Assembly (NCBI GenBank): GCA_016209895.1
Contig: JACQVH010000109.1
Span: 8,732-72,731, forward strand
Source of the DNA: Candidatus Hydrogenedentota bacterium
GTDB taxonomy: Bacteria > Hydrogenedentota > Hydrogenedentia > Hydrogenedentales > SLHB01
Direction of reading: 5' to 3'
DNA: 64,000 nt
The notes beneath the pieces were generated by a model. That model was not told where the DNA came from. It worked only from the letters and a program-made list of their open reading frames with translations, and made no database searches. How positions within the stretch are numbered: position 1 is the first letter of the stretch; each line of letters begins with the position of its first letter. Below, piece after piece: positions 1,890-18,243 of the stretch. The position numbers and the translations under genes are program-made.

Positions 1890-4880
1890 ATGCAGAAGAA
1901 ACTAATCGGAACCTTTGTCAAATTGACCGTGACGAGCGGTCTGTTCATCTTGCTTTTTCGGCCCCATACGTTCGGGCTGCGTCCAGACCTTTTCGGTGGC
2001 GTAACGCCCGCCAAGATGCTGGCCGAATTGGGCCAGGCGCAGGCGCACAATTTGGTACCCTGGCTGTTGTTTGCGACGCTGATCAAACTCTGCGGGATCA
2101 TGTGCGGCGTCTTCCGCTGGCGGCTGCTCTTGCAAGGACAAGGTCTGCGCATCCCGTTCTGGTATCTGGTGCAGAGTTGGTTTGTGGGGCGCTACATCGG
2201 CATTTTCCTACCGAGCACGATTGGTCTCGATGGATACCGTCTCTACGATTCCATTAAGTACACCGGCGACATCGTGCGACCGACCGTGGTAATTGCCGTG
2301 GAGAAACTGATCGGCGTGATCGCCCTGACGTTCCTGGTGTTCGTCACGTTTCCGCTCGGTTTCCGTCTCGTGCACATGAACGTGGTCATCCTGGTGGTCA
2401 GCCTCATGTTTTTGGGGACGCTGGTGATGACGGCATTTCTGCTGCTCTTGAATCCGCGGATCATCCAAGTATTGGTTGGGGTCTTCCCCACGCCCGCGCC
2501 GATTGCCTCCAAATTGAACAAGCTTGGGGCGGCGGTCACGGCGTACAGCGGGAACCGAGCCCTCTTGATGAAGGCGGTGTTCCTGGGCCTGATGGTCCAC
2601 GTCGCCTCCTGTCTCGTCTATTTCGGGACGATGATGGCCCTGCGCGCCGAGAACACGACGTTAACCGACATCCTCTTTGCCAGTCCGCTCATGATTTACG
2701 GCACGGTGCTGGGTCCGTCCATCGGCGGCGAAGGTATTCGCGAGATCGTGTTCGTGACCCTGCTCGGCGCGACGAGCGGGGCCGCGATGGCCGCGCTCAT
2801 TGGGCACCTCGGTTGGTGGACCGGCGACGTGGTTCCGTTTCTCATCGGCGCGCCCATCTTTATTTTCCGTTCCTCGAGCGCCCGCCGTGAAGACTTGGTT
2901 GACTCCGTCAAGACCGCCATGCGCCGTTTCGCGGAGGGAGAAGGCGAGCACCCGCAGTTGTCCCCCGAAACTCTGCTCGATTATCGTACGAAGCTGATTG
3001 ACTGCCTGATCGCCTGCGGCTTGGGCGGCCTGATCGCGGGGGCGCTGCTGGGACTTACCGAAGCGACATGGCTGGTGCGCTTCGTGGGTAATTTAACCGA
3101 ACTGGGCGCATTCTGGTGGGGACCGGCGGCATACGGTGTTCTGTTCGTGGCCGCCGGATTGGCGATCGCCGGCGTGCTGGCCTTCGCATTTCTGATCTTT
3201 GATCGCTTCTTCAAACCGACGACCACGTTCGCTCTGACTTTAGGCGCCTCGCTGGCCGCCGGGCTTCTTATCGTGGGGCGGTTTCGTTTCAATCGAGATA
3301 TCCTTCACGAGCACGGCCTTTCGCGGATGCAAGACGGGGCCGTACTCGGGATCTCATTGGTCGGGGGCATGGTTGTGGCCGCGATACTTTGGATCGTCAT
3401 TTCCCGTGTACGCACGGGACGCGCGAAAGCCGTGGGTATCGGCGTGGTGTGCTATCTCTGCCTCATCGGTGGCGGCGCGCTCTGGGCGTCCATCGTCAAG
3501 CCGAAAGATTCTGCCGCCGCATTCGTTCCCAAGACCGGCGCGTCCGGACCCAACGTCATCCTGATCGTGGCGGACACATTGCGCGCAGACGCGTTACGCC
3601 TTTACAGTGGTCGTGCGCGCGCCCGCACGCCGAGCCTCGAAGCATTGGCCGCTGACGGCGTCTTATTCCAGAATGGCTTCGCCCAAGCGTCGTGGACGAA
3701 GGCATCGTTCGCCACCATTTTTACGGGTCAATATCCCGAAGGACATACGGCGACCGGAAAACAATCTCAACTGCCGGCCGATAGGGACACCTTGGCTGAA
3801 CTCTTGTCCGAAAAGGGCTATTTCACGAAAGGATTCTCCAATAACGGCAACATTTCCAAGACATTCAATTTCCAGCAGGGGTTTGTGGACTACACCGACC
3901 TCGAGCCGAATCGGTACTTCGGGGCGACCCCTTCGTCGGCAAAGATGATCCTTTATGAAGTGCTGCGGCGGGTGCGCGGTAAAATCTTTAAGCGTATGGT
4001 GGTCACCGATTTTTATCAGCCGGCCGAGTCGGTATCGGAAGTCGCGCTGGGTTGGCTCGATAAGCGCGGCACCGCACCGAATAGTCCATTCTTCTTGTTC
4101 CTGCACTATATGGACCCGCACGATCCCTATATGGATCGGACGGAGCCGGGCATCGGCTATGCGCGGCGGGACATGGAGAATCCGGACCCGGGAAAATTCC
4201 TGGACAAGATGCGGGTCGCGTATGACGGTGAGATCGAATACATGGATCAGCACCTGGGCACACTCTTTGACGGCCTCCGACAGCGCGGTCTGTATGATGG
4301 TTCGATCATCGTGTTCACTTCGGACCACGGCGAGGAGTTTTTCGAGCACCACGGCTGGTGGCACGGGCAGACCCTGTATGACGAGCAAATCCACATTCCG
4401 CTCATCATCAAGCTTCCGGCAAACAATCAAGCGGGCGCGGTGAAGACCGGCTTTGCGCGTCACGTAGACATCGCCCCTACGTTACTGCAGCTCGCCGGTG
4501 TCTCGCCGAGTGCAAAGATGAACGGCAAGTCTCTCTTAGGGGCGGATAACGCGCCGGCCAACGCTGACATCCCGTTCGTTTACGCGGAAGAAGATTTCGA
4601 AGGCAACGTGCTGCAGGCCGCCCGCACAACCTCCGCCAAAGTGATCCAGGCCAATCCGGATAACCCCCGCAAATTGGCGCCGGTCGAGCTTTACGACGTC
4701 GAGGCTGATCCTGGTGAACAGAACAACCTGGCCGGAAAATCCGACCCGCGCGAGCCCGAACTGCTGGGCACGATCAGCGAAATGCAGGCCCTCATAAAGC
4801 AGGGCGCGGCCGAGTCGGTGGAGACGGATATTCCGCCGGAGTTGCAGGAGCAGATAAAAGGCATCGGCTATCTCCAGTAG
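1890..4880 (+). CDS. Polytopic membrane protein with an N-terminal flippase-like domain (UPF0104 / lysyl-phosphatidylglycerol-synthase TM type), then an LtaS-like 5-TM block and a C-terminal sulfatase/alkaline-phosphatase-superfamily domain
   Basis: A 996-aa ORF. The N-terminus has about 8 hydrophobic helices with the R..LL.G / GxxxxPxxxGxDxxR signature of MprF-type flippase domains. The middle region has further TM helices. The C-terminal part carries sulfatase-family motifs (ILIVADTLRAD with Thr as nucleophile, FTSDHGEEF, GKSLLG). Confidence 0.7.
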   Translation: MQKKLIGTFVKLTVTSGLFILLFRPHTFGLRPDLFGGVTPAKMLAELGQAQAHNLVPWLLFATLIKLCGIMCGVFRWRLLLQGQGLRIPFWYLVQSWFVGRYIGIFLPSTIGLDGYRLYDSIKYTGDIVRPTVVIAVEKLIGVIALTFLVFVTFPLGFRLVHMNVVILVVSLMFLGTLVMTAFLLLLNPRIIQVLVGVFPTPAPIASKLNKLGAAVTAYSGNRALLMKAVFLGLMVHVASCLVYFGTMMALRAENTTLTDILFASPLMIYGTVLGPSIGGEGIREIVFVTLLGATSGAAMAALIGHLGWWTGDVVPFLIGAPIFIFRSSSARREDLVDSVKTAMRRFAEGEGEHPQLSPETLLDYRTKLIDCLIACGLGGLIAGALLGLTEATWLVRFVGNLTELGAFWWGPAAYGVLFVAAGLAIAGVLAFAFLIFDRFFKPTTTFALTLGASLAAGLLIVGRFRFNRDILHEHGLSRMQDGAVLGISLVGGMVVAAILWIVISRVRTGRAKAVGIGVVCYLCLIGGGALWASIVKPKDSAAAFVPKTGASGPNVILIVADTLRADALRLYSGRARARTPSLEALAADGVLFQNGFAQASWTKASFATIFTGQYPEGHTATGKQSQLPADRDTLAELLSEKGYFTKGFSNNGNISKTFNFQQGFVDYTDLEPNRYFGATPSSAKMILYEVLRRVRGKIFKRMVVTDFYQPAESVSEVALGWLDKRGTAPNSPFFLFLHYMDPHDPYMDRTEPGIGYARRDMENPDPGKFLDKMRVAYDGEIEYMDQHLGTLFDGLRQRGLYDGSIIVFTSDHGEEFFEHHGWWHGQTLYDEQIHIPLIIKLPANNQAGAVKTGFARHVDIAPTLLQLAGVSPSAKMNGKSLLGADNAPANADIPFVYAEEDFEGNVLQAARTTSAKVIQANPDNPRKLAPVELYDVEADPGEQNNLAGKSDPREPELLGTISEMQALIKQGAAESVETDIPPELQEQIKGIGYLQ

Positions 4881-4924
4881 CGGGCAGTCCGTTAGATCAT
4901 GAGCTTGGAGGGGGAGTTTCCTGT

Positions 4925-7441
4925 GTGAAAAGACAGGCACAGATATGGCGTTCGGGAATAGTTGGTCTATTGCTCCAGACGACACTCTCGTCCATTTTCG
5001 CTGCACCTCCGGAGAGCGCAACTCAGAATGGGGTTTTGCGCTTTTCGTATTGGGCCAACCAGGAAGAGCACGTCAATATGTGGCGGCCCATCATCCGCGG
5101 ATTCGAAGCGGAGTATCCTGCCGTCGCGGTAAAACCGGAATGGTACCTCGGCGATTATGGCCGCAAGCTTCAGATGGTGTTCATCACCAACACCGCCACC
5201 GACGTCATCCTGATGGACGACGAGATTTATCCTTCTTACGGTGTCCGCGGTTATCTGGAAGACCTCCGGCCTTACATCGAGCGACGCAGCGACGAGATCG
5301 AACGTCTCCTGTCGGATGAACTGCATTACCTGGCCACGTCTCCGGCACAGCGCGATCCCGGATTCCGGAGGCGATTTATGCCCACGAGCTTGGAAAGCTT
5401 TGATTATCGCGGATTCCTGGGCGGACTGCCGTGGGCCGGCTTCGCCGTCATCATGTTCTACAACAAAGACCTGTTTGATCGGGACAGCATTCCGTACCCG
5501 CAAGACGGCTGGACTTGGGACGACTTCCGTCGAGTCGCCCGCCAACTTACCAAGGACCTCGATGGCGACGGTCGCACCGACCAGTTTGGCACCAACATAT
5601 TCTTCGAGTTCCTACCTTTGGAGCCGTTGGTCTGGAGTTACGGCGGCGATTTTCTCAACGCCGACAATACCCGAAGCTCCATCCAGGAACCAGCGGGCCT
5701 GCAAGCGGTCCGGTTCGTCTACGACATGAAGTACCAAGACCATTCAATTGCCTTATCGGGAGAGCTGGGCCTCTTCGCTCCCGAGATTCAATTGTTAACC
5801 GGACGCCTGGCGATGGTGCCCGGCGCCTCGTACGGGGTGCCCACCCTTAACCGCGTCACGGAGGGACTCCGCTGGGGCATTGCGCATATGCCCCGGGGTC
5901 CGGCTGGTAAACGTTACACGCGCGTCACGTGGAACGGCATTTCCATGTATCGGTATGCCGCACCCGACAAGAAGGAATGGGCCTGGAAGTTCATCAAACA
6001 AATGCTCAGCGACCGGGTTCAGACGTCGGTCGGCAAGGCGCAGCGGGGCATTCCGGTGCGCCGTGAATTGGCCTATGAGACGTATGCGAATCCCAATACG
6101 CCCGCGGAAGAAGAGACCGTATTGGAAGCGACCGAATATGGCAGGCTGACGCCGATCACACCGCGCTACATGGAACTGCGCGAAGCCATCACGAGCGAGT
6201 TTTCTGCTCTAAACGTGGCCGAGGTCACCGGTGTTACGCCCGAGGCCGCCGTGAAACGCGCTGCGCCCAAGATCGATCGCGTGCTGTCCAAGGATTTGGC
6301 CGAATGGGGACACGCCACTATCAATCGCACCCCGTCCGAAAGCGGCGCCTCCTCCGTGTTCAAAGCCCTGAGCATCGCCGTGCTCCTACTCGTGGGTGGC
6401 TTCAGCGGACTAATGGCGGTCCCGCCGGTACGCCGCGGATTTCGCAGGCAGTGGGACGAAGCGTGGGTCCTCGTGCGAAGTCGTCGGGGCCGCGGCCAAA
6501 CGCTGGAAGGAATCTGCTTCGCCTCGCCCTGGCTGGCCGGACTCTGCCTGTTTACGGCGTTTCCCATCTTGTTCAGCATCGTGCTCAGCTTCTGCGAATG
6601 GGACCCTTACAAACCCATGTCCGAGATAAAGTACATCGGCCTCGCCAATTTCCACCGGGCGTTTTCGAGCGACCCCATGTCCGGCGACCCCCTAGTCGGC
6701 AAGGCGCTGTACAACACGCTGTACTACGCCTTTTTCGCCGTGCCGCTGGGCGTCGGCATTTCACTTTTCCTGGCGGTCCTGCTCAACCAGAAGATTCGGG
6801 GCATTACCCTATTCCGCACCGTGTTCTATCTGCCGAGCATCGTGTCGGGGGTGGCCACGGTCATTCTGTGGACCTTCATTTTCGACCCCATCTTCGGACC
6901 CTTGAACGGCGCCATTCGATCTCTTAACGTACTACTCGACAAGTCACACCTGTTGGCCTTCATCAATCTTCCGGAACCCATGTGGCTTAACGATCCGCAT
7001 TGGGCCAAACCCTCGATGGTGCTCATGAGCCTGTGGGGCGCGGGCGGCGCGGGGATGCTCGTCTTCCTGGCGGGACTGCAGGGCGTGCCGGATCAACTTT
7101 ACGAAGCCGCCGAACTCGACGGCGCCGGACGGCTGCGCAAGTTCTGGAACATTACGCTACCGATGTTGACGCCCACCATCTATTTCAACTTGCTGATGGG
7201 CGTCATCGGCGCGCTCAACGTGTTCATGCAGGCCTTCATCCTCACCAACGGCACCGGCGGCGTAGACTACTCGTTGCTCTTCTACGTGCTCCATCTTTAC
7301 AACAAGGCGTTCGTCGAGTTCGAGATGGGCTACGCCTCCGCCCTGGCCTGGATTCTCTTCGCAATCATTATGGGCTTCACGCTGTTGATCATTCGCTCGA
7401 GTGCGCTCTGGGTCTACTACGAAGGAGAACGCCGACCATGA
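4925..7441 (+). CDS. Sugar ABC transporter: family-1 extracellular solute-binding protein fused in-frame to a MalF-like permease (GTG start)
   Basis: The N-terminal 470 aa or so look like a CUT1-type binding protein with a signal peptide (VLRFSYWANQEEH...). The C-terminal 350 aa form a 6-TM permease with the EAA motif (EAAELDGAGRLRKFWNITLP). There is no stop codon between the two parts. A GGAGGGGGAG ribosome-binding site sits upstream of the GTG start. Confidence 0.7.
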   Translation: MKRQAQIWRSGIVGLLLQTTLSSIFAAPPESATQNGVLRFSYWANQEEHVNMWRPIIRGFEAEYPAVAVKPEWYLGDYGRKLQMVFITNTATDVILMDDEIYPSYGVRGYLEDLRPYIERRSDEIERLLSDELHYLATSPAQRDPGFRRRFMPTSLESFDYRGFLGGLPWAGFAVIMFYNKDLFDRDSIPYPQDGWTWDDFRRVARQLTKDLDGDGRTDQFGTNIFFEFLPLEPLVWSYGGDFLNADNTRSSIQEPAGLQAVRFVYDMKYQDHSIALSGELGLFAPEIQLLTGRLAMVPGASYGVPTLNRVTEGLRWGIAHMPRGPAGKRYTRVTWNGISMYRYAAPDKKEWAWKFIKQMLSDRVQTSVGKAQRGIPVRRELAYETYANPNTPAEEETVLEATEYGRLTPITPRYMELREAITSEFSALNVAEVTGVTPEAAVKRAAPKIDRVLSKDLAEWGHATINRTPSESGASSVFKALSIAVLLLVGGFSGLMAVPPVRRGFRRQWDEAWVLVRSRRGRGQTLEGICFASPWLAGLCLFTAFPILFSIVLSFCEWDPYKPMSEIKYIGLANFHRAFSSDPMSGDPLVGKALYNTLYYAFFAVPLGVGISLFLAVLLNQKIRGITLFRTVFYLPSIVSGVATVILWTFIFDPIFGPLNGAIRSLNVLLDKSHLLAFINLPEPMWLNDPHWAKPSMVLMSLWGAGGAGMLVFLAGLQGVPDQLYEAAELDGAGRLRKFWNITLPMLTPTIYFNLLMGVIGALNVFMQAFILTNGTGGVDYSLLFYVLHLYNKAFVEFEMGYASALAWILFAIIMGFTLLIIRSSALWVYYEGERRP

Positions 7442-8301
7442 ATGCTGAGCGCATGGTCGGGCGCAGTCTGACTTCCGAACGGTGGTTTGGTCGCGCGTGG
7501 GGCCTCGCGCTTCTGGTGCTGTTGTCGGCGCTGTTCATCTTGCCGCTGCTCATCACTGCGAGCGACAGCATGAAAGACTTCATGGGCGTCTACGCGATGC
7601 CGCGCATCTGGATACCGCGTCCCCCCCACTTCGAGAATTTCCTGCATATCTTCACCATGATGCCGTTCCACCGGTTCTTCCTGAACACGCTGTGCATCAC
7701 CTCGTTGGCGCTCTTCGGCCAAGCCATTACCGCCAGCCTGGTCGGCTACAGTTTCGCGCGGTTGCGCTGGCCGTTCCGGGACGCGCTCTTTGTCGTGTTG
7801 CTCAGCACCATCATGCTGCCGCCCCAAGTCACATTGATCCCGGTCTTCATCATGTTCAACCAGATCGGTTGGGTGGATACGTGGCTGCCGCTGATCGTTC
7901 CGGCGTATTTCGGCGGCGGCGTTTTCAACATCTTCCTGATGCGTCAGTTCTTCAAGACCATCCCGCTTGACCTCGAAGAGGCCGCACAAATTGACGGATG
8001 CTCTACCCTGCGCATCTTCGCCACCATTATGGTGCCCCTCGCCAAGCCCGCCGTCGCTACCATCTGCGTGCTCGGATTCATCGGCCACTGGAACGACTTC
8101 CAAAACCCCCTCATCTACCTCTCTGACTACCTGAAGTACCCCATCTCCCTGGGCATCTGGATGTTCCGCAGCGCCGAAGTCATCTACGCCCATTACATTA
8201 TGGCCGCCAGCCTCGTAGCCGTACTCCCCGTCATCGTCCTCTTCTTCGCGGCACAACAATACTTCGTAAAAGGGATCGTGCTAACCGGGATCAAAGGATG
8301 A
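7438..8301 (+). CDS. Sugar ABC transporter permease, MalG-like
   Basis: The start ATG overlaps the upstream stop (ATGA). A 287-aa 6-TM protein with the EAA loop (EEAAQIDGCSTLRIFATIMVP). The ORF track start at 7000 is an upstream extension in this frame that overlaps the preceding gene. Confidence 0.8.
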   Translation: MNAERMVGRSLTSERWFGRAWGLALLVLLSALFILPLLITASDSMKDFMGVYAMPRIWIPRPPHFENFLHIFTMMPFHRFFLNTLCITSLALFGQAITASLVGYSFARLRWPFRDALFVVLLSTIMLPPQVTLIPVFIMFNQIGWVDTWLPLIVPAYFGGGVFNIFLMRQFFKTIPLDLEEAAQIDGCSTLRIFATIMVPLAKPAVATICVLGFIGHWNDFQNPLIYLSDYLKYPISLGIWMFRSAEVIYAHYIMAASLVAVLPVIVLFFAAQQYFVKGIVLTGIKG

Positions 8302-8392
8302 TTAGCAGAGTGCGAAGCGCAAAGGATGAAGTGTGAAGTCTGAAGGACGAAGCGTGCAGTCAGGACCGAGACGGGCGTGGACACGACGGCGA

Positions 8393-9412
8393 TTACGACG
8401 TAGTGCGAAGGAGGAGGCGGGCCTCGCCCAGCGTGAATGTGAAGATATCGGTGGCCACAGCCAAGTTGGTATGGTAGCCGGAGTTCTTGGTGGTTTGCTG
8501 GCGAATGACGGCGATGTCCACATCGTTTTCGCGCTTGGGTTCAACGACGATCCGGGCTCGGCCGGAAGCGCCTTTAGCGAGGGCTGTGAGCCAGTTTCCC
8601 TGAGGCGCGGGGGGAGGTTTGACAGGTAAGCCGCCAAATGCCGGCCGGGCCACAAGCACGCAGTAGAAGTAAGGATAATCCGTTCCCTGAACGCTGTTTA
8701 TTGAAATTTGCATCTGCAGCCCCAGAAAATCCGGCGGTCCTTCATGAAACATCAGGATGGCCTTCACGTCTGTGGGTATCTCGCCGGAACCGTCCCGGGC
8801 TTTGGCGGTCTGTAACTGGTACTGAAACACTTCGCCGCTCTTCGCGCCGGAGGCGTTGAAGGCACTTTCGATATTCAGAAGCATCTCGGATTTCACGACA
8901 AGCCGATCATTTTTCAGGATTGAGCGCACGCCGGTTATCCAGAATGGAATCAGCATCACCGGCGCATTAATGAAGAGAAATGCCGTTCGTTCCGCCGAGG
9001 GACCCGACTGCGTCAGAACGAAGACGACGAATGCGAGTGCGCAGAGCGCCGCCGTAGCCAGAATACCGACGCGTCCGATGCCATTCGTGACATCAACGAG
9101 GTCTTGGTCCCATTTCTTCTGCTCCTTGTTGATGGTGATGATGCGTTGGATCTCCTCGCTACGCGCCGGTCGCCATTCCCGGGAGGCCGCTTCCGGTTCT
9201 GCCTTATTCTCGTATCCTTTGGTAAGAAGGAGGAGCACACCGGCAAAAACAAGAAGCAGGCCGATTCCTCGCGGGGGGCCGTCCAACCCAATCTGAATCG
9301 CCAGTCCGATCGTCATCAACAAGAACGACAGCGCGAGACGCGGACCATAGGGAAGGGACTTCGCGAGGTAGAAATGAATCTCGGCTCGTCGCTCAGCTTG
9401 TGGCAACAACAT
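8393..9412 (-). CDS. Hypothetical membrane protein (two TM helices, then a soluble domain); last gene of the radical SAM operon
   Basis: The ORF 8393..9634 was trimmed to the internal Met (MLLPQAERR...) so that it no longer overlaps the upstream radical SAM gene. Two hydrophobic helices are present. No known domain was recognised. Confidence 0.45.
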   Translation of the reverse strand: MLLPQAERRAEIHFYLAKSLPYGPRLALSFLLMTIGLAIQIGLDGPPRGIGLLLVFAGVLLLLTKGYENKAEPEAASREWRPARSEEIQRIITINKEQKKWDQDLVDVTNGIGRVGILATAALCALAFVVFVLTQSGPSAERTAFLFINAPVMLIPFWITGVRSILKNDRLVVKSEMLLNIESAFNASGAKSGEVFQYQLQTAKARDGSGEIPTDVKAILMFHEGPPDFLGLQMQISINSVQGTDYPYFYCVLVARPAFGGLPVKPPPAPQGNWLTALAKGASGRARIVVEPKRENDVDIAVIRQQTTKNSGYHTNLAVATDIFTFTLGEARLLLRTTS

Positions 9413-10736
9413 GGGTCTCTCCCGAGCGGTCCAGTTCTTGGTAGCCGAAGTGCTCCCAGTATAGCGGACAGGCCCCCTGGCATAGGTCGAAATTCTCGCA
9501 TTCGTGGCATCGCGGCGGCGCACATTCCTTTTCCCGCAGTCGCCGCGCCCGCGCCGATTCCCATGTCTTCCGGAACCCGTCGCGCAACAGATTCCCAAGG
9601 GGTTCGGGCCAACTGGAACAAGGTAGCACGTCACCCCTGGGGGAAACGGAAAGTAGACCGTCGCACGCCGCGCAACCCTTGTTTCCCAGTTGGTGTTGGA
9701 TGGGGTTAAAGATGCAGACGGGTGTGGGCGAATACCACAGGAATTCCACGTTGTTCCGGCGGGCCTGGTCCTGAATGCGAAGAACGGCCTCAGACACGTC
9801 GCCGTATCGCAAGTTAATGTCCGGAAACATTGCGCGGCTCGTACCGGTAGGAATCACCAGGTTCATTGAAAACCGCTCGAGGCCCAGCGAGCGTACAAAC
9901 GCCGGCATCGCGTCTGCCGTTTCTATGTTCATTCGGTTAAGGGTAGTGTTGGTATGAACCCGGATGCCGTGGTCGCGGAGATGGCCGATACCGGCGATGG
10001 TTCGGCGAAACGAACCGTTCGCCCTCGTAAGCTCGTCGTGAATAGCCTCGTTATGCGACTCGAGGCTCACCTGCGCACTGGTCAGTCCGGCATCGCTCAG
10101 TTCTCCCGCCAGAACATCGTCTATGAGTGTTCCATTGGAAATCAGGTTCACTCGCAGACCGCATTCCTGGCGCGCGTAACGCGCCAATTCGGGAAGGTCT
10201 TTGCGCAGCGTCGGCTCGCCTCCGGTAAGACTGAGACTCGGCACCTGAGCCTCTTCCTGAATAATGCGAAGCACCCGGCGTATCTCACTGGTCGTCATTT
10301 CCGGTTCAGATTCGCGGCTTCGCGTGCATCCGCAACCCGCGTAGCAAAACCGGCAACGCAGATTGCAGCGATACGTCACGGCCACTTCGCTGAGGACCGG
10401 CAGCGAGCTAAACCGTCGCGAGAATGGTCGAGTCGTGACGGCTTCCGGCGGCCGGCGCTCATTTACGCACCCTTGAAGGACCTGTTTTAGGCCGACAAAG
10501 AAGAGGTATAGGTCGCGCTGAACTTGGGGAGAACGGCCGTGGGACTCCCACAGTTGCAGGATACCTTCACCGGCAAACAAGCGCTTCAGGATTCCTACGG
10601 CAGAGGCGTTGAGCTTGTGCGCTTCGTTCGGCACTTTGATGAGCAGGCTGTCTTCCTCCCGCACGACCACGAACCCGCGCAATCGCGCAACGTACTCGTC
10701 AATCCATTCGAGCGGGTACGGTCCGATGTCGTTCAT
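9393..10736 (-). CDS. Radical SAM / SPASM-domain enzyme with an N-terminal PqqD-like RiPP recognition element (RRE); putative peptide/protein-modifying maturase
   Basis: 447 aa. The N-terminal 90 aa or so match the PqqD/RRE pattern (SLLIKVPNEAHKLNASAVGILKRLFAGEG...). A CNLRCRFCYAG (Cx3Cx2C) radical SAM cluster motif is present. The C-terminus has a Cys-rich SPASM/twitch region (CAACDG...CSSW...CHECENFDLCQGACP). Confidence 0.85.
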   Translation of the reverse strand: MNDIGPYPLEWIDEYVARLRGFVVVREEDSLLIKVPNEAHKLNASAVGILKRLFAGEGILQLWESHGRSPQVQRDLYLFFVGLKQVLQGCVNERRPPEAVTTRPFSRRFSSLPVLSEVAVTYRCNLRCRFCYAGCGCTRSRESEPEMTTSEIRRVLRIIQEEAQVPSLSLTGGEPTLRKDLPELARYARQECGLRVNLISNGTLIDDVLAGELSDAGLTSAQVSLESHNEAIHDELTRANGSFRRTIAGIGHLRDHGIRVHTNTTLNRMNIETADAMPAFVRSLGLERFSMNLVIPTGTSRAMFPDINLRYGDVSEAVLRIQDQARRNNVEFLWYSPTPVCIFNPIQHQLGNKGCAACDGLLSVSPRGDVLPCSSWPEPLGNLLRDGFRKTWESARARRLREKECAPPRCHECENFDLCQGACPLYWEHFGYQELDRSGETHVVATS

Positions 10737-10737
10737 G

Positions 10738-12393
10738 CTAGTGCGAACCTCCGCTGACGCATGCCGAATGGCACGCCGAATGACAGGCCGAATGACAGGC
10801 GGAATGGCACGCCGAGTGACACGCCGAATGACAGGCGTCGTGGCAGGCCGAGTGCGTAAAGCACCCTTCGAAACAGTAGCTGGACTCGAGAAACTCCGAG
10901 TACGTCAACGTGTGAGCGGGCTGACGAAATTGGTCCCGGTATGTCGCCGGATCGCGGCTCCAGTAGTAATCACCATAGCGGTAAGGATAATCTTCGGCAA
11001 CCGGCTCCTCCAATACCTTTTTGGTGAATAGTTGGCTCACGATGGTCTGGTAGTGAGCGCGGGTCGCCTCCAGGTCACAGTCCCACGCGGCGCGCTGCAC
11101 GTTCGCACACAGCTTGCGGAATACCTCGTCCATTTCATTTTCATCGAGGCGATCGTCGTTCACGATATAACCGAAGACCATTTCCTCGTACGGGTTGTCG
11201 AGTCGAGGAAAGCCGGTCCGGGTGCGACAACGAAACGGGTTGGTTTGGGTAACTTCGATTACCCCCGACGTTTCGAGCCGTCCAACAATGGCGCTGAGGA
11301 TCGCCCCGAACGGTTGGTCGCATATCAAACAGGCCTCGTAAATATCGAGTTGCGCGACCTTGCCTTCTTTCCGAAAGGACGATAATTCGATCCGCGGCGG
11401 TATCCAATCTTCGCGTGACCACCGAATACTGCTCAATCCGTCGCGAGCCCGGAGCATCGAGCGGTGTTTCGCGCTGCTTACCAGCAAGACCAATCCAAGG
11501 AAGAGTGCTGCCACCAGGGCCGGGATGAAGTATGGTGTGCCTGCCTCGGCGACCGGGCGCGGCGGCATCCGCACAGCGGGGGCTCGAGGCAGGGACACCG
11601 GCGGCGGCGAGACCGCCTCCACCAGCGGCTCGTTGAAATACTTCGCCGCGATATACTGCTGAATTCGAAAGTGGTACATCTTATCCACGTTGTCGCGATG
11701 CAACCGCACCGCCAGCCAGTTGCCGCCTTCGTATTCCTGGCCGTAATAAGAGATACGGTAGTTCTCATTCATGAACGGCTCGGTTCGGAATCCGTACTGA
11801 TTCATTTCCTCGATGGTCATCGTTCCTCCCGGCAGGCTGCTCTGCGCCGGAGCCTCAACCGGATAGTAAACGCGGACCGTGTAGTGGCCTAGGGGCGCGT
11901 CCCACTGAACCGGCGCCCAATTGAAGTACACTAAGTCTCCAAATTCGGACATGGTCACACCCAAATGGCCGGACGCGAGCAGGTCGGCCGCGTAGGTGAA
12001 TTTGTAGATGACGTCCCCGGAATCAATCGCAGCGCCGCCCGCGAGCACGATATCCCATTTCCTGTCCCCCACTTTCTCGATGGAGAGCGGCAGGCTACTT
12101 CGGTTTTCGTCGTACCACGCCCGGGCATTCGCCGTGTCGAACACCGGCGTCTCCTCAACGCCCTCGAAATAGAACCCGTGAAGGTTGCCGCGAGACCGCC
12201 AACATACGCTATAGGTAACGCTGGCCTTGTAGTCGGAGCGAAGCGCTACGTCCACTTCCGCCCACTGGAGGACGCCGTCCGCGTGCGCGACCGACACGAC
12301 CAAGCAGAACAATGCGGCGGAAACGGCTAAACACAAGACCGCCCTCACCGGAGCAGTTCCCACGAAATCCATCTCGCCCTGCGTTCGGATCAC
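10738..12393 (-). CDS. Single-pass membrane protein with a secreted N-terminal domain and a cytoplasmic C-terminal domain ending in a Cys/His tetrapeptide-repeat tail (ACHS/ACHD)x7
   Basis: 551-aa ORF. It has a signal peptide ([21 protein letters not shown]), one TM helix ([21 protein letters not shown]) and a C-terminus [42 protein letters not shown]. Its stop codon is 1 nt from the radical SAM start codon. Confidence 0.6.
   Translation of the reverse strand: [551 protein letters not shown]
10759..10848 (-). repeat. Near-perfect 12-nt tandem repeat (7.5 units) encoding (Ala-Cys-His-Ser/Asp)n
   Basis: On the + strand the unit reads gcatgccgaatg / gcacgccgaatg / acaggccgaatg, repeated. The reverse complement encodes ACHS repeats in frame with the 551-aa ORF. 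Confidence 0.9.
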
Positions 12394-12555
12394 TCGAAAC
12401 TCCCCAAAACAAACCGAAACTTAGCGAAGGTACCCCTCAGAATTCAGTATGACTTTACCTCACCTTCCGGCTCAGTTCCAGTAACAACGCCCCCAGCTTG
12501 ACGTTCCACTTTGAGTAGTTTCTCGATGACACAGGTGTACCACCCCTTCCTCAAA

Positions 12556-13830
12556 TCAGTTGGACATCTTTGGGTGCGAACGCAGGCCGAGTATGAGTTT
12601 CTGTGTCCAATCCTGCAACTCAGCTTTCCACTCGGGTCGTTCTCGGATACGGGCACGACACTCTTGCTTGAGTACCGGTTCAATCTCTTTGCCCAGTGAA
12701 GCCAAGTCCCTAATCAGGCTCTTAATGCCCTCTTCCTCGGCTAGGACGTTTCGAGACTGCCATGCGTTTGGACGCCCTGACATGTAGCGATGATATAGAA
12801 ATCGTGCAAGTTGGGTTCGGTCATAGTCGTCTCTGGTCACGGAACGCGGATCAAAAGTAACTCTCTTATCCCCGCCGTCGAGCCACGCTTTCCACGTCTT
12901 GTAATCCTCGTTCAATAGCCATCCCCAATCCTTACCCGTAATTTCAGTAAGCGACTCTGACGCGGCATGCCGAACGACATAATAGAGACCTAAACGGGGC
13001 TTGTGCGATGGAGTCCAAACTTGCCACTGATTCTTATCAATTTCGATTGTGGTGTCATCCTTCATGGCTTCGACGAGGGCGGCGAGGGCTTTGTCGCCGC
13101 CAAATCTCGCCAAGGCGGTGGCGGCCTTGGGGCGCACTACGGATGCTGCTTTTCCCGGCGTGTGCAGGGCCTCGATGATGTAGTCAACCGCACGCGGGTC
13201 TCCTATCTCGGCGAGGGCCGGCACGATGAACTGCGTAAGCTCCGGATGCTTATACTCCGTTGCGTGTTCGACGGCCCCGCTGCCCGCGATCACGAGTTCG
13301 TTGGCCAAAAGGTGAGCCGACCAATACTTCAGCTTGGGAGGATCCAGAATTCCTTCCACAATGCGTTCTACCCGCTGTTTCATGGGTAATTTTCGAATTT
13401 CGTTAACAATCTTTTGATACTCCAATCGGAAAATGCAATCTTCGGAAGCCAGCCGGTTCGGGAACATGGTCCGGGGTGGCCCTTTGTCCATACCCCATGT
13501 CACGTACGCATCCGTCTCTTGAATTGTGGACAAATTCTTTTCGATGAGAGCAATCTGTTCGTCAGTGAATTCGTCCATATTCGAGCGTTCGAACAGTCGC
13601 AGGAACTCGTGTAATTCTTCTCCTGATTTTTCGCTCAGATTACTTAAGATAGCGTCGAACGCCAATATCGGCTTGGGCGGAAGCTCTTCGCCGTCACCCT
13701 TCGCCGCAATCAACAGTCCGAGCATTGTGAATATGATTGTGATATGACGGTACAATAGTGTGAAGCTGCAATACCACGGAGTTTGGACAATAATTCGTAG
13801 GACCGGTGACGGCACGCTCAAAGTGGTCAT
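12556..13830 (-). CDS. HEAT-repeat (PBS-lyase-like) protein with an N-terminal hydrophobic segment
   Basis: The ORF was trimmed to the Met preceded by GGGGAGAG. Repeated A..AL..IGD..A...L motifs are typical of HEAT repeats. GC content is lower than in neighbouring genes. Confidence 0.5.
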   Translation of the reverse strand: MTTLSVPSPVLRIIVQTPWYCSFTLLYRHITIIFTMLGLLIAAKGDGEELPPKPILAFDAILSNLSEKSGEELHEFLRLFERSNMDEFTDEQIALIEKNLSTIQETDAYVTWGMDKGPPRTMFPNRLASEDCIFRLEYQKIVNEIRKLPMKQRVERIVEGILDPPKLKYWSAHLLANELVIAGSGAVEHATEYKHPELTQFIVPALAEIGDPRAVDYIIEALHTPGKAASVVRPKAATALARFGGDKALAALVEAMKDDTTIEIDKNQWQVWTPSHKPRLGLYYVVRHAASESLTEITGKDWGWLLNEDYKTWKAWLDGGDKRVTFDPRSVTRDDYDRTQLARFLYHRYMSGRPNAWQSRNVLAEEEGIKSLIRDLASLGKEIEPVLKQECRARIRERPEWKAELQDWTQKLILGLRSHPKMSN

Positions 13831-13857
13831 AACCTGCTCTCCCCTTCTCATTCTCCG

Positions 13858-14433: not shown

Positions 14434-14560
14434 CGACAAATATACGTAAGGACCGTGTCTCGGCATGGGTAATCTGAGACAAGCGTTGCCGTTTTGCTGT
14501 GGTCCTGGCTTGCAACGCCGAAGGGATGGGCCAGGCGAACGGAGTAAGGGGTGTCGAATC

Positions 14561-15304
14561 ATGAAGAGCATAAACATGTCAAGATCGTCTATTCGTCTAT
14601 CATTGGGGATTGCCCTCGGAGTATTTGCCGTCGGGTGCCCGCTCTTGCGGGGAGTCACCGTCACGCCCAAGAACCTCGCCATGTTGGAAGGAGAAATGGC
14701 GCAACTTTCCGCGTCAAGCCGCGATCCAAAAGATACATCATTTACGTGGTCTTCGGGCAACCCGGGTGTTGCGACGGTCGACAACACGGGCAAGGTAACC
14801 GCGGTTGCGGAAGGCACGGCAACAATCACGGCTACGGGAACAATCAGCCTTGCCGCCGGCAACGCGGAAGTAAGCGTTGCGCCCGCGCCGGAGCCGACCA
14901 TGGGTGAAACGCTTCTTGAGTTCATTACTAAGGAGGACCCCTACGACGAGTGGACTCAGTTCCCGGACGCTCAGGGGAGCTTCGACAGTTCCCCGCCCCA
15001 CGGCCCCAAGTCCCGTGTCTTCATCAATGGCGTGGTGAACGACGCTCTTGCCGCCAACTTCACCGGTTCGCTGCCGGACGGGTCCATCATTGTGAAAGAA
15101 AGCTTTGATGAAAACATGGTGGAATCCGGCGACTCCCTGACGGTCATGTGGAAAGTGGATGGATTCAACCCGGATGCTAACGATTGGTTCTGGTCTATGA
15201 ACAGTTCTGACGGCAAAGTCCTGGCGGAAGGCAAGATTCAGGGATGCATTAGCTGTCACGGCATCCGGCAAAACAACGATTTCATCTTTCTACACACGTT
15301 CTAA
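14561..15304 (+). CDS. Lipoprotein with an N-terminal bacterial Ig-like (Big_2) domain and a C-terminal cytochrome P460-like haem domain
   Basis: A lipobox-like signal (LGIALGVFAVGCP) is followed by a Big_2-like beta-rich segment (VTVTPKNLAMLEGE...TATITATG). The C-terminus (PDGSIIVKESF...LTVMWKVDGF...DWFWSMNSSDGKVLAEGKIQGCISCHG) matches the P460 pattern, including the terminal CxxCH. AAGGGG ribosome-binding site. Confidence 0.5.
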   Translation: MKSINMSRSSIRLSLGIALGVFAVGCPLLRGVTVTPKNLAMLEGEMAQLSASSRDPKDTSFTWSSGNPGVATVDNTGKVTAVAEGTATITATGTISLAAGNAEVSVAPAPEPTMGETLLEFITKEDPYDEWTQFPDAQGSFDSSPPHGPKSRVFINGVVNDALAANFTGSLPDGSIIVKESFDENMVESGDSLTVMWKVDGFNPDANDWFWSMNSSDGKVLAEGKIQGCISCHGIRQNNDFIFLHTF

Positions 15305-16310: not shown

Positions 16311-16990
16311 AAGTAATCGCGATTAGCGGGAGCCCGCGTCGAGGATCGAGCACCGACCAACTGGTGCGCGAGGTCCTCGAGGGGGTGGAAGAATGTGAAA
16401 AGGAATTCATATCGCTTGCCGGGAAATCGGTTGCACCGTGCCGCGCGTGCCTCGGTTGTGTTGAAACCAACGTTTGTGTGATCAACGATGATTTCGTGTC
16501 GTTGCGTGAAAAAGTCATTGCGGCTGACGGCTACATCATCGGGGGTCCCAACTACTTCAACATGCTAAATGGGCTGACCCACGCGTTCTTGGAGCGCTGG
16601 TACCAATTTCGCCATCGCGCCGCCATGCTGGTCGCCGGTCGCGTAGGTGTCGCGGTCGGGGTAGGCGGCGGCAGTGGGCAGCCTGCGGCTGACGCGATTT
16701 CCACGTTCTTCAAGTACAACGGCATCGAATGTATCGGCGATGTTACGGCTCAAGGCGCGGCGAGTTGTTTCACCTGCGGCCACGGCGAGACGTGCACGGT
16801 GGGCGCCATTCACGCCAGTTTTCCCCCGGGCACGAAGATAACTGACGACATTACGCCGTCACTGTGCAAGCAGCCTGCGGCGATCGCCAAGGCTCGCTCC
16901 CTCGGGAAACAATTAGGCGAGCGCCTGACGGGAAGCACCACGAGTCGCCAAGCGCGAACCGCACGGACGCATCCACGGGTTGCGCGCTGA
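16307..16990 (+). CDS. NADPH-dependent FMN reductase-like / iron-sulfur flavoprotein (flavodoxin fold)
   Basis: MKVIAISGSPRRGSSTDQLV... is the typical NADPH_dep_FMN_red N-terminus. A Cys cluster (CRACLGC) is present. GGAGGA ribosome-binding site. The gene is translationally coupled to the TetR gene. Confidence 0.7.
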   Translation: MKVIAISGSPRRGSSTDQLVREVLEGVEECEKEFISLAGKSVAPCRACLGCVETNVCVINDDFVSLREKVIAADGYIIGGPNYFNMLNGLTHAFLERWYQFRHRAAMLVAGRVGVAVGVGGGSGQPAADAISTFFKYNGIECIGDVTAQGAASCFTCGHGETCTVGAIHASFPPGTKITDDITPSLCKQPAAIAKARSLGKQLGERLTGSTTSRQARTARTHPRVAR

Positions 16991-17079
16991 CCGTAGCCTC
17001 CATTCGGGTCGGTTTGCATTGCATTGGCAAAAGCCAGAACGGAAACACCAGCCAAGAATTTATTGGGAGGAGTGTAACG

Positions 17080-18243
17080 ATGATGTGCGCATCATTCATG
17101 GCCACCGTCTTATGGTTTGTCTCGACGCAGGCACCAGCGTCCGGTTCGGACGACTCGGCCGGGAAGGAAGCAGCGTCTAATGTAGATCAGATCATGCAGC
17201 GAATCAAGGAGTTCCCGTTCAATCCGATTCGGGATGGGCGCACGCGAGAGCCGGCACTCGACCATGATGGGGTGGCCAATCTCGCCGACGGGGCGTGGCG
17301 GGTACGCGTATTGGCGATTCGCGACTTGGCTCGGCTGGGGGCCGCGGCCGTCCCCGAGGTTGTCGAGTATCTGAATGATGAGAATCCCCATGTGCGACAC
17401 GTAGCGGCGTTCGCGCTAGGATTCCATCCCGGAGAAGCATCCGATAAGGCATTGATAGACCTGCTCCGGCGCGACCCGGATTCGGTCGTTCGTTCGCAGG
17501 CGGTCATTTCGTTGAGCCAGTTGAAGAGTCAGGCGGCATTGACGTTGCTCGAGGACTTGGCGCAAAACGACGCCAGCCGGGACGTCCGGCACCAGTGCGA
17601 CCTCGCCGCCTACCGGATTACGAAATACCCAGGGCCCGAGACGGGTCTTGCGGCCGCCTATGCGCGACTGGACGAATCAAAATTTGAGCAAATCCGTGTG
17701 GGACAGCCCGCCCTTGATTTCGAACTGGCCGATACCGACGGGAACAACTGGCGTCTTACCGATTTCCGCGGGAAGAAGTCCGTGGTCCTCATCTGGATAT
17801 TTGCGGATTGGTGCCCGGTTTGTCACAACGAATTTCGCGAGCTCATTCAACTCAAGGAAGAATATGCGGCCCACAACGTGGAAGTGGTTACCATCGAATG
17901 CCACGATGCGTACCGTGGCCGCGTCATGGTCGGACGCGAGTTTCAACCTAAGTACTGGTTTACCAAAGAATCTCCGCAGGGGTTCTACCAGGGGAGAATC
18001 TGGTGGCGTCACCTGGTTGACCCGGCCGGATCGGTTGGCGCCACGTATGGCGTGCAACCGATGGAATTTGTCGTGCACTCCGAGTGGATAAACCGACCCG
18101 CCACGGTAATCGTGGACAAGGAAGGAATCGTGCAGTTCGCATACTACGGAACCTACTGGGGCGACCGACCCAGTATCGAACAAACTTTGGGAATGGTCCG
18201 TAGCGGCAACTTCGCTTTTGAACACCCGAAGCGTCTGAAGTAG
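17080..18243 (+). CDS. Secreted fusion protein: HEAT-repeat domain plus a thioredoxin-fold redoxin (AhpC/TSA / TlpA-like) domain
   Basis: A signal peptide is present. HEAT-like repeats follow (VRVLAIRDLARLG..VPEVVEYLNDENPHVRHVAAFAL.., VRSQAVISL). The C-terminal part carries the redoxin motif WCPVCHNEF. GGGAGGAG ribosome-binding site. Confidence 0.65.
   Translation: MMCASFMATVLWFVSTQAPASGSDDSAGKEAASNVDQIMQRIKEFPFNPIRDGRTREPALDHDGVANLADGAWRVRVLAIRDLARLGAAAVPEVVEYLNDENPHVRHVAAFALGFHPGEASDKALIDLLRRDPDSVVRSQAVISLSQLKSQAALTLLEDLAQNDASRDVRHQCDLAAYRITKYPGPETGLAAAYARLDESKFEQIRVGQPALDFELADTDGNNWRLTDFRGKKSVVLIWIFADWCPVCHNEFRELIQLKEEYAAHNVEVVTIECHDAYRGRVMVGREFQPKYWFTKESPQGFYQGRIWWRHLVDPAGSVGATYGVQPMEFVVHSEWINRPATVIVDKEGIVQFAYYGTYWGDRPSIEQTLGMVRSGNFAFEHPKRLK

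Follow-up and report, generated by a model that had tools for sequence, protein, structure and literature searches.

A three-gene cassette with a Cys-His repeat membrane protein and a radical SAM/SPASM enzyme, a putative system of protein modification

Background

Why should a large membrane protein end in a regular Cys-His repeat, and why should its gene be followed at once by that of a radical SAM/SPASM enzyme? The question is raised by a locus in a Candidatus Hydrogenedentota MAG, within a stretch of 64,000 nucleotides that is called the window here. The answer favoured here, with moderate confidence, is that the enzyme is a RiPP-like maturase that covalently modifies the cytoplasmic tail of its neighbour, probably by thioether cross-links, and that the product stays attached.

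Organisation of the locus

The locus consists of three tightly packed genes, all on the minus strand, as are the features given within them. Gene 1 (10738-12393) encodes a bitopic membrane protein of 551 aa, the presumed substrate, from a GTG start at 12393 or, alternatively, from the in-frame ATG at 12372. A single base separates the TAG stop of gene 1 from the ATG of gene 2 (9393-10736), whose 447 aa product is a radical SAM/SPASM enzyme by its Pfam matches and is 100% identical to NCBI MBI4557443.1. Gene 3 (8393-9412; 339 aa; ATG at 9412) overlaps gene 2 by 20 nt. ORF calling and the DNA itself agree here with an earlier note on this sequence, which had reported tight packing with a 1-nt gap and an overlap of about 20 nt.

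The earlier note had also given gene 1 a signal peptide, an extracytoplasmic domain, one transmembrane helix and a cytoplasmic domain, and both hydropathy and charge bias bear this out. The signal peptide or anchor, the first hydrophobic segment (aa 18-36; 12286..12342; hydropathy 2.71; AHA/DG), appears in the AF2 model as a helix at residues 15-35. It is followed by a DUF2207-N-like periplasmic beta-sandwich ectodomain (aa 39-255; 11629..12279), a transmembrane helix (aa 289-307, then KHRSMLRAR; 11473..11529; hydropathy 2.49), a cytoplasmic juxtamembrane motif with a helical, winged-helix-like domain (aa 321-456; 11026..11433; AF2 pLDDT 72-89), and a variable linker that leads to the tail. 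Four Lys/Arg follow the second hydrophobic segment, against two on its N-side, which places the last 240 residues, with the tail, in the cytoplasm. Invariant residues of the cytoplasmic domain are W325, W330, P333, R341, G344, K345, Y402, E403, W437, D438 and D440. A phmmer search with gene 1 returned 287 representatives from 1.84e9 proteins. No Pfam or NCBIfam model covers the protein and no paper describing it was found.

The gene 3 product has four transmembrane helices within aa 26-162 and, at aa 170-338, a cytoplasmic alpha/beta domain, as judged from hydropathy and an AF2 model with a pLDDT of 90. It matched no Pfam or NCBIfam family, nor was a paper found that describes it. Hydropathy finds no hydrophobic or transmembrane segment in gene 2, the product of which is soluble. 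The compartments agree, the tail and the gene 3 domain both being cytoplasmic.

The Cys-His tail

Read from the DNA, the tail has seven C-H-x-A units and a final Cys, then VSGGSH. The core repeat, CHDA-(CHSA)x6-C, runs from C517 to C545 (10759..10845) and the conserved C-terminal cap VSGGSH, with which gene 1 ends, lies at 10741..10758. The repeat had been recognised before, although the tail string then given is one ACHS unit short and the reported 10 Cys and 8 His in 40 residues have to be corrected: there are 8 Cys and 9 His in the last 40 residues, and 10 Cys and 9 His in the last 46. Before the repeat is a leader-like segment (aa 495-516; 10846..10911), a candidate docking site for the recognition element of gene 2. 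Four motif classes can be told apart in this segment, each specific to a clade, and they follow the radical SAM clades.

The register of the family is (Cys-His-x-Ala)7-Cys-Val-Ser-Gly-Gly-x-His. His and Ala are invariant in 572/572 repeat units, exactly seven units are present in 61 of 80 tails, and the core Cys count is fixed at 8, with 7-8 His. The third position is set by the unit, being Asp in unit 1 (50/51) and Ser in units 3-5. All 80 tail endings begin C-V-S; 75 fit C-V-S-[G/S]-[G/S]-x0-1-[H/R] and 69 end in His. Column conservation in the tail is 0.93, far higher than elsewhere in gene 1; the ectodomain reaches 0.53 and the cytoplasmic domain 0.48. The ACHS-coding 12-mers within one gene differ by a mean of 2.45 nt, all of it synonymous, which argues for selection on the peptide. 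The same tail was found once per source in 162 of 165 sources (164 related loci and the window), the other three being contigs cut short or without gene 1. There is exactly one tail per locus, and its recurrence is far beyond chance.

Distribution of the cassette

The cassette is found across approximately 400 species, mostly uncultured bacteria, with the radical SAM gene on 403 genome stretches. Of the best 80 of these 403, under about 20 phylum-level labels, 79 have the radical SAM gene flanked directly upstream by gene 1 and downstream by gene 3; at the exception, L081, the radical SAM gene and gene 3 are present but another gene takes the upstream position. Gene 3 lies downstream wherever the contig reaches. 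A reciprocal metagenome scan, seeded on the gene 1 ectodomain alone, found the tail at all 77 loci and, at the 76 with room for it, the radical SAM gene with gene 1 directly upstream. Genome and metagenome loci combined, the radical SAM gene has its partner in 155 of 156. The pairing of the enzyme with an adjoining Cys-repeat protein, on which the earlier note had built, thus holds across these loci, and no gene 1 ortholog was found that keeps the radical SAM gene and lacks the tail. The same three genes stand between unrelated flanks at L001-L003, and the distance matrices of the three proteins correlate pairwise (rho 0.59-0.67). It is clear that the three genes are inherited together.

Natural fusions of a gene 1-like protein with gene 3 (P0358 and P0339) support the two proteins being partners. 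Both fusions are tail-less, and therefore those two proteins also occur without the tail. The suggestion that tail-less homologs lack the enzyme holds for the one fusion with usable flanks, in which no radical SAM gene was found. Conserved neighbours were sought across 83 loci; no flanking family is present at more than 11 of the 83, and no protease or transporter recurs.

The radical SAM/SPASM enzyme

Gene 2 matches Radical_SAM (1.2e-28) and SPASM (1.4e-8; 35.3 bits against a cut-off of 21.5) in Pfam, both above cut-off. In an alignment of 19 sequences the cluster motif C124-x3-C128-x2-C131 (10344..10367) is invariant. So are eight Cys of the SPASM region (9468..9716), namely C341, C355, C358, C373, C410, C413, C419 and C423, and the further motifs C358x9Gx4C373 and C410x2Cx5Cx3C423. 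The Cx3Cx2C cluster and C-terminal SPASM domain were therefore correctly identified at the outset.

The PqqD-like RiPP recognition element (RRE) claimed for the N-terminus (aa 8-105; 10422..10715) stands on ortholog profile matches and not on the window copy, for which no PqqD model was reached in HMMER searches of Pfam and NCBIfam. Among 12 orthologous N-domains, Pfam PqqD matches 7 (best 3e-6) and, in NCBIfam, lasso-PqqD matches 9 and PqqD 6; PF05402 is precomputed on orthologs P0079 and P0124. Against the PDB, the N-domain has a match to TfuB1 (E 0.13). The PqqD/RRE families are the only ones that it matches consistently. Comparison between pre-tail motif classes lowers identity most in the RRE, where it goes from 0.58 to 0.39; for the core the values are 0.63 and 0.50. 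This co-variation could be plain phylogeny.

The closest solved relatives of gene 2 include the peptide maturases SkfB (5e-29), PqqE (4e-24), SuiB (7e-19) and CteB (3e-14). Its top NCBIfam scores, in contrast, are to tetrapyrrole enzymes: AhbD (145 bits) and NirJ2 (136), then AhbC and NirJ. Gene 2 might on this basis be an AhbD/NirJ-like haem-modifying enzyme, with the overlapping C-x3-C-H of the tail binding or covalently carrying haem; CX3CH, which can be read in C-H-S-A-C-H, is a rare variant of the haem c motif. This is very improbable. The scores are far under the NCBIfam cut-offs of 500-650 bits for models of this type (500 for AhbD), which rejects membership, and peptide maturase models score nearly as high. 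AhbD/NirJ enzymes lack the RRE that gene 2 has. No other haem gene is conserved nearby, the tail is cytoplasmic and so away from cytochrome c maturation, and the residue after the last Cys is Val, not His.

The window also encodes a sulfatase-domain protein (1890-4880; Sulfatase 4.4e-51) 3.5 kb away, and structures of anaerobic sulfatase-maturating enzymes (anSME) are among the solved relatives of gene 2 (2e-16). Maturation of this sulfatase by gene 2 is scarcely credible, and the gene neighbourhoods effectively refute it: the sulfatase is not a conserved neighbour of the cassette at other loci, while genes 1 and 3 accompany the radical SAM gene at 155 of 156. The 25 best NCBIfam matches listed for gene 2 include no anSME model, and anSMEs have no RRE. 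None of the known non-RiPP families against which gene 2 was tested, as the earlier note had advised, fits it. The three tests that the note had named as able to refute its idea thus all leave it standing.

A proposed modification system

Taken together, the three genes probably form a self-contained post-translational modification system, the chemistry and role of which we infer from sequence. The recognition domain of gene 2 would dock on the clade-specific segment that immediately precedes the repeat, after which the enzyme would proceed along the tail and carry out one radical modification per unit. A thioether would be the most likely product, joining each Cys sulfur to a carbon of the neighbouring invariant Ala or His with a change of -2 Da per link; the third-position side chain is unlikely to be the acceptor, since that position tolerates Gly. 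Gene 3 might hold or present the tail at the membrane. The modified tail should stay on gene 1, since the cassette has no protease or exporter, and could form a rigid cytoplasmic part of a membrane complex, studded with His and possibly metal-binding, rather than a secreted natural product. Because no published description was found, the cassette probably marks a protein modification new to the literature searched.

An RRE, a radical SAM/SPASM enzyme and a Cys-rich C-terminal core are also the standard layout of sactipeptide and ranthipeptide systems, and gene 1 could be an oversized precursor from which the modified tail is cut and released. This conventional RiPP is improbable, given that neither the cassette nor its surroundings include a conserved protease or exporter, that the 500-aa 'leader' is itself conserved, folded and membrane-inserted, that the tail is on the cytoplasmic side, and that tail-less gene 1-gene 3 fusions exist.

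A RiPP core would not usually show total invariance of His and Ala or so tightly held a number of units, and both features are explained at least equally well by a metal or cluster site. The tail may be a metal or Fe-S module, in which Cu(I), Zn, Ni or Fe-S, for instance, is bound by free thiols and imidazoles that form a Cys/His stripe on a helix or a bundle of helices. Gene 2 would then build, insert or repair a cofactor or cluster, or use the tail as a scaffold, without cross-linking. The invariance of Cys, His and Ala and the fixed 8 core Cys and 7-8 His suit this, and Csp copper-storage proteins line their cores through CxxxC spacing along helices. In the AF2 model the tail is helical, at an uninformative pLDDT below 50. 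NifU is found downstream at 8 loci and NifS at 6, all of them within a related minority. Such a module is unlikely, if the most substantial of the alternatives, as gene 2 carries a peptide-recognition domain of the PqqD type and has several peptide maturases among its closest solved relatives, and a metal site alone leaves the obligatory radical SAM partner unexplained.

Comparison with known systems

Covalent modification of the tail has its nearest parallels in SCIFF/ranthipeptide and sactipeptide maturases (CteB, PapB with its CX3D repeats, SkfB). Like gene 2, these combine an RRE at the N-terminus with a radical SAM core and a SPASM domain that has two auxiliary-cluster motifs, and their target is likewise C-terminal with Cys at every fourth residue; the SCIFF core also has C-x-S-A-C spacing. 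However, their substrates are peptides of 40-50 aa rather than the tail of a 551-aa membrane protein, and the cassette differs in its invariant His and Ala, its dedicated four-TM partner and its want of a protease or exporter; a thioether is predicted here. Gene 2 stays under the cut-offs of the SCIFF, PapB and sactipeptide models (PapB 70 against 340, StsB 85 against 625, SkfB 71 against 300).

The earlier note had likened the tail to the ACGX-repeat family. That family exists (TIGR04340), but gene 2 is not a member (87.5 bits against 400). The CXXX-repeat target (TIGR04117/PF27846), like ACGX one of the systems that Haft described in silico, is a nearer analogue, and is likewise rejected as a family for the tail, which has weak matches to TIGR04117 (E 0.025-0.07; 13-15 bits against a cut-off of 50); PF27846 is precomputed as 'weak' on P0001. 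Both systems have tetrapeptide periodicity, fixed Cys (Ala-Cys in ACGX) and an adjoining radical SAM/SPASM gene. Their targets are short peptides, whereas the C-H-x-A repeat is on a large membrane protein. To our knowledge, the CXXX-repeat and ACGX systems are themselves uncharacterised.

In quinohaemoprotein amine dehydrogenase, the radical SAM/SPASM enzyme QhpD puts Cys thioethers into a retained working subunit, QhpC, which resembles the product proposed here. QhpC is small, soluble and periplasmic, carries three Cys-Asp/Glu links and has no repeat, and the likeness is at the superfamily level only. For one radical SAM/SPASM reaction per four-residue repeat, the precedent is the poly-cyclopropylglycine pathway, in which TvgB acts once on each TVGG repeat of the C-terminal core of TvgA (PMC9062424). 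Its chemistry is a C-C bond on Val without Cys, on a small peptide precursor, and its cluster includes an oxidase, a peptidase and transporters.

Gene 1 itself resembles DUF2207 membrane proteins (PF09972) in its signal peptide, beta-sandwich ectodomain, transmembrane helix, cytoplasmic part and low-complexity C-terminal tail. PF09972 matches 9 of 12 family members weakly, below the gathering threshold, and not the window copy. The function of DUF2207 is uncharacterised, and the Cys-His repeat and radical SAM partner are features of the cassette and not of DUF2207. One gene 1 ortholog (L063) ends in a Gly-rich GGGGSSGGGGASGGW extension.

Organization of the cassette

The three genes of the cassette are tightly packed on the minus strand of the window. 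Gene 1 (10738-12393), which encodes the presumed substrate, is a 551-aa ORF. It is followed by gene 2 (9393-10736), the 447-aa radical SAM/SPASM enzyme, whose ATG lies 1 base after the gene 1 stop codon, and by gene 3 (339 aa; 8393 to an ATG at 9412), which starts 20 nt inside gene 2. Reading of the ORFs therefore confirms the spacing and the overlap described for this sequence in an earlier note. The window belongs to a Candidatus Hydrogenedentota MAG, and the proteins MBI4557443.1 and MBI4557442.1 are 100% identical to gene 2 and gene 3, respectively. A promoter and terminator scan of positions 8100-12800 identified nothing exceeding shuffled expectation.

Hydropathy and an AlphaFold model (mean pLDDT 72, about 90 in the ectodomain) divide the gene 1 protein into a signal or anchor segment (residues 18-36), a beta-sandwich ectodomain (41-249), a TM helix (289-307) followed by KHRSMLRAR, and a helical, winged-helix-like domain (351-455), bearing out the signal peptide, extracytoplasmic domain, single TM helix and cytoplasmic domain that the earlier note had proposed. 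The linker and the tail are poorly predicted in the model. This layout places the Cys-His tail at the C-terminus in the cytoplasm. No hydrophobic segment is seen in gene 2 by hydropathy. For gene 3, hydropathy and its AlphaFold model give four TM helices and locate the two termini and a 170-aa C-terminal domain in the cytoplasm.

The gene 1 ectodomain has an Ost1 / M1-N-domain-like beta-sandwich fold. The Pfam family DUF2207 (PF09972), for which the ectodomain would have to score 24.4 bits or more, does not match gene 1 of the window. Weak matches are given by 9 of 12 members of the gene 1 family (E 1.4e-4 to 1), and the two scores seen, 16.8 and 13.9 bits, are below the threshold.

The Cys-His tail

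Read from the DNA, gene 1 ends ...(CHSA)x6-C-VSGGSH, which amounts to seven C-H-x-A units and a terminal Cys, with 10 Cys and 9 His in the last 46 residues. The Cys/His repeat noticed earlier is thus real, and the string reported for it was one unit short, which is immaterial. The repeat takes the form C-H-[S/D/G/N]-A across 80 orthologs, and the His and Ala are invariant in all 572 units. There are seven units in 61 of these genes and eight in 14, within a range of 3 to 10. All of the tails begin their ending with C-V-S; 75 of the 80 fit C-V-S-[G/S]-[G/S]-x0-1-[H/R], and 69 have a final His. Even the variable position is specific to its register in the seven-unit tails, being Asp in unit 1 (50 of 51), Ser in units 3-5, and Ser or Gly in units 6-7. 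The tail has a column conservation of 0.93, compared with 0.53 for the ectodomain, 0.48 for the cytoplasmic domain and 0.31 for the linker.

Within one gene, the 12-mers encoding the same ACHS differ by a mean of 2.45 nt and the differences are all synonymous. The repeat is therefore kept by selection at the peptide level rather than by recent slippage, and recent DNA repeat expansion is ruled out. A motif scan of 164 fetched loci and the window found exactly one CHxA stretch in 162 of the 165 sources; no second stretch that could be an extra precursor was seen in any locus, nor elsewhere in the 64-kb window. It is clear that the tail is cytoplasmic, residue-exact and strongly selected. The invariance of its His and Ala and its fixed unit count would favour the main rival to modification by gene 2, in which the tail is an unmodified metal or cluster site and gene 2 acts on a cofactor, a reading that we consider unlikely overall.

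Gene 2 and its family

Gene 2 is, as had been proposed, a radical SAM enzyme with a SPASM domain, scoring 100.8 bits against the Radical SAM superfamily (PF04055; gathering threshold 29.5) and 35.3 bits against SPASM (PF13186; threshold 21.5). In an alignment of 19 relatives that are 49-71% identical, the CX3CX2C cluster cysteines C124, C128 and C131 and the GGEP motif at 172-175 are invariant, as are C358-x9-G368-x4-C373 and C410-x2-C413-x5-C419-x3-C423, which fit the C-terminal SPASM pattern CX9-15GX4C ... CX2CX5CX3C.

The first 110 residues of gene 2 are strongly conserved across the family. The earlier note had called this region a PqqD-like RiPP recognition element (RRE), an assignment that was judged by matches of the approximately 90-aa domain to the PqqD-type models PF05402, TIGR03859 and NF033530. 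The N-domain of the window's copy on its own matches none of these models. Among 12 orthologous N-domains (39-73% identical), Pfam PqqD is matched by 7 (best 3e-6), the NCBIfam lasso-peptide PqqD chaperone NF033530 by 9 and TIGR03859 (PqqD) by 6, and no family other than the PqqD type recurs. When a profile of the N-domain was searched against the PDB, it matched TfuB1, a lasso RRE protein, at E 0.13, and the alignment is sensible. Because of these ortholog matches and the TfuB1 alignment, the domain is accepted as a predicted RRE at the family level.

The approximately 20 residues ahead of the repeat, the pre-tail, fall into four clade-specific motif classes. Identity in the RRE region of gene 2 is 0.58 within these classes and 0.39 between them, the largest divergence in the protein, while that of the catalytic core goes from 0.63 to 0.50. 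This co-divergence is compatible with leader-like recognition of the pre-tail by the RRE, short of proof.

An NCBIfam scan of gene 2 placed no model near its cut-off, the top scores being AhbD at 145 bits (cut-off 500), NirJ2 at 136 (500) and GeoRSP at 130 (400). The tetrapyrrole enzymes AhbD, NirJ and AhbC, which are defined by equivalog scores of at least 500-650 bits and have no RRE, were rejected both on score (145, 136, 117 and 114 bits) and on the extra PqqD-like N-domain of the gene 2 family. The idea of a haem-related system is weak or refuted, given scores far under the cut-off, the predicted RRE of gene 2 and the cytoplasmic position of the tail. No anaerobic sulfatase-maturating enzyme (anSME) model is among the best 25 NCBIfam matches, and the genes flanking the cassette in 83 loci include no recurrent sulfatase; a role for gene 2 as a sulfatase maturase, which would call for a sulfatase conserved near the cassette, is likewise weak or refuted. 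Gene 2 thus falls into none of these known non-RiPP families. A PADLOC scan gave only generic radical SAM similarity to viperins.

The likeness to the ACGX system (TIGR04340) pointed out in the earlier note does not extend to membership, as gene 2 scores 87.5 bits where 400 are required and the repeat is A-C-H-x, not A-C-G-x. No ACGX peptide model matched at E up to 10. The CXXX-repeat radical SAM target family (TIGR04117 / PF27846) consists of short peptides with Cys at each fourth residue that score at least 50 bits; the tail scores 13-15 bits and belongs to a protein of 551 aa. The nearest solved structures to gene 2 include the peptide maturases SkfB, PqqE, SuiB and CteB, with GDGT-MAS, cytosylglucuronate decarboxylase, anSME and MoaA in the same similarity range.

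Distribution and conservation of the cassette

The order gene 1, radical SAM, gene 3 is kept between unrelated flanks at the loci of three gene 1 homologs retrieved by identity. A radical-SAM-specific motif scan with one genome per species identified 403 relatives, of which the best 80 were examined. The labels of these 80 span about 20 phylum-level groups and the sources are essentially all MAGs. Among the labels are Hydrogenedentota, Nitrospiraceae, Verrucomicrobiota, Planctomycetota, Gemmatimonadota, Omnitrophota, Elusimicrobiota, Armatimonadota, Calditrichia, Acidobacteriota, Aminicenantes, Dehalococcoidia, Clostridia, Actinomycetes and others. By tblastn, gene 1 is directly upstream of the radical SAM gene in 79 of the best 80 loci, so that the neighbourhood conservation that the earlier note had suggested looking for is seen, and gene 3 is downstream wherever the contig continues.

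A few loci vary. In one (L081), on a contig of only 3 kb, the ORF upstream of the radical SAM gene (32-763) is of another kind and encodes 243 aa, the sole fetched locus without gene 1 there; gene 3 is still downstream. In Bacterium UASB270 (L063) gene 3 is about 3 kb farther downstream than usual and the gene 1 ortholog (4150-5625) ends ...ACVSGGGGSSGGGGASGGW, a Gly-rich extension resembling the tails of DUF2207 proteins. The order is permuted to gene 1, gene 3, gene 2 in L163 (3304-5678), so the cassette tolerates rearrangement yet retains all three genes. A cassette in a MAG labelled Candidatus Bathyarchaeia archaeon (L017) is 59-60% identical to that of Hydrogenedentota, and its archaeal label reflects mis-binning or horizontal transfer.

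The reciprocal test used gene 1 ectodomain motifs only, on metagenome contigs. In the 80 loci obtained, the tail is present in 77/77 with a readable 3' end and the radical SAM gene in 76/76 with at least 1.5 kb of room. A word-indexed protein search gave an unreliable count of 13 gene 1 relatives, against more than 160 fetched loci that encode one; the repeat probably saturated the word index or the candidate list, and tblastn on the fetched loci corrected the undercount. The distance matrices of proteins 1, 2 and 3 correlate (rho 0.59-0.67), so the three genes travel together. The cassette is an obligatory three-gene unit.

In the flanks of 83 loci no other gene family occurs in more than 11, and no protease or transporter recurs. 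A released RiPP product made from the tail, for which a conserved protease or exporter was sought in these flanks and not found, is thus a weak or refuted explanation. ABC-F, NifU and NifS occur only in 6-11 related loci; NifU is just downstream of the cassette in 8 loci (L002, 14818-16969, and 7 others) and the cysteine desulfurase NifS in 6. This adjacency, probably lineage synteny, bears on an interpretation of the tail in terms of Fe-S or metal. A mobile-element origin was rejected, relatives being absent from the viral contigs and plasmids searched.

Fusions of gene 1 and gene 3

Gene 3 is physically linked to gene 1 in two natural fusions. In P0358 (L165, 4491-6359) an ectodomain and TM helix resembling those of gene 1 (BLASTP 4e-28) are joined to a module that resembles gene 3 (hhalign 96.9%, E 1.6e-10). 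In P0339 (L166, 124-1746) the C-terminal domain of gene 3 (hmmsearch 4.9e-16) is attached to a gene 1 part made up of the ectodomain, the TM helix and one half of the cytoplasmic domain. The CHxA tail is absent from both. Only P0358 has usable flanks, and no radical SAM gene is present in its 4.5 kb upstream and 350 nt downstream; the prediction that tail-less homologs would lack the enzyme is thus borne out at this single locus. The P0358 gene adjoins two rubrerythrin genes, a desulfoferrodoxin and OsmC.

Proposed function

The cassette is classified as a radical SAM/SPASM maturation system with an RRE. It would work like a sactipeptide, ranthipeptide or SCIFF system and its general logic is familiar; it shares its periodicity with the uncharacterised CXXX-repeat and ACGX-repeat systems of Haft, and each of the membership tests run at family level placed it outside the family in question. 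What is unusual is a membrane protein tail as the presumed substrate, the conservation of its register at residue level, and a dedicated membrane partner. Neither gene 1 nor gene 3 is covered by a model in curated libraries dated 2025-2026, and literature searches found no ACHSACHS motif in a relevant context, no CXXX-repeat or ACGX combined with radical SAM, and no membrane-anchored RRE/radical SAM target.

It is somewhat more likely than not that gene 2 modifies the tail covalently and that the modified tail is retained. Gene 2 would dock onto the pre-tail and modify each unit in turn of the repeat, and one reaction per tetrapeptide has a precedent in TvgB acting on TVGG repeats (PMC9062424). 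The most likely chemistry would be thioether formation, because the nearest characterised Cys-directed SPASM maturases make thioethers; as a specific claim, this is plausible but rather doubtful. In sactipeptides the Cys sulfur is linked to C-alpha, and in ranthipeptides to C-beta or C-gamma. The invariant Ala or His may be a likelier acceptor than the third position, because Gly is tolerated there. The modified tail is probably kept on gene 1, within a membrane complex of the gene 1 and gene 3 proteins; no release machinery for it is conserved beside the cassette in the flanks of 83 loci. A more speculative extension, and an improbable one, is a protein-derived cofactor of a new kind, in which a fixed ladder of 7-8 radical-SAM Cys cross-links would produce a rigid rod whose ordered row of His imidazoles binds a metal chain or senses redox or metal. 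Genes 1 and 3 would form a DUF2207-like receptor complex, with the rod on its cytoplasmic side. If true, this would be the first functional handle on DUF2207-type membrane proteins.

RRE-bearing radical SAM/SPASM enzymes are the chief source of novel peptide cross-link chemistry. To our knowledge, the cases studied come nearly all from cultured Firmicutes and Proteobacteria, where the enzymes act on small peptides that are secreted. The cassette differs in being strictly conserved, minimal and very widespread (about 400 genome matches with about 20 phylum-level labels, almost all uncultured), in the nature of its presumed substrate, a large membrane protein with the tail on the cytoplasmic side, in the residue-level conservation of the tail's register, and in its lack of release machinery. 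Such breadth and invariance would surprise a specialist. Modification of the tail by gene 2 would be a new post-translational modification of a membrane protein, probably with either a linkage of a new type, Cys-Ala or Cys-His, or a novel metal site, and a first clue to the role of DUF2207-like proteins. Three genes and a substrate fragment of 120 residues would suffice for a direct test.

Other genes of the window

A 1344-aa ORF on the plus strand (18991-23025) has no Pfam match; the 1171-aa ORF antisense to it (19561-23076) is probably a high-GC artefact. Several plus-strand genes encode fused domains. An LPG_synthase_TM region is fused to Sulfatase/SGSH_C (1890-4880; 996 aa), and an ABC solute-binding domain (SBP_bac_1) to a permease domain (BPD_transp_1) in a single 838-aa ORF (4925-7441) that is followed by a second permease (7435-8301). 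Big_2 is joined to a cytochrome P460-like domain (14465-15304), and a HEAT-repeat protein to an AhpC/TSA peroxiredoxin domain (16864-18243). A further HEAT protein is encoded on the minus strand directly upstream of the cassette (12556-13851).
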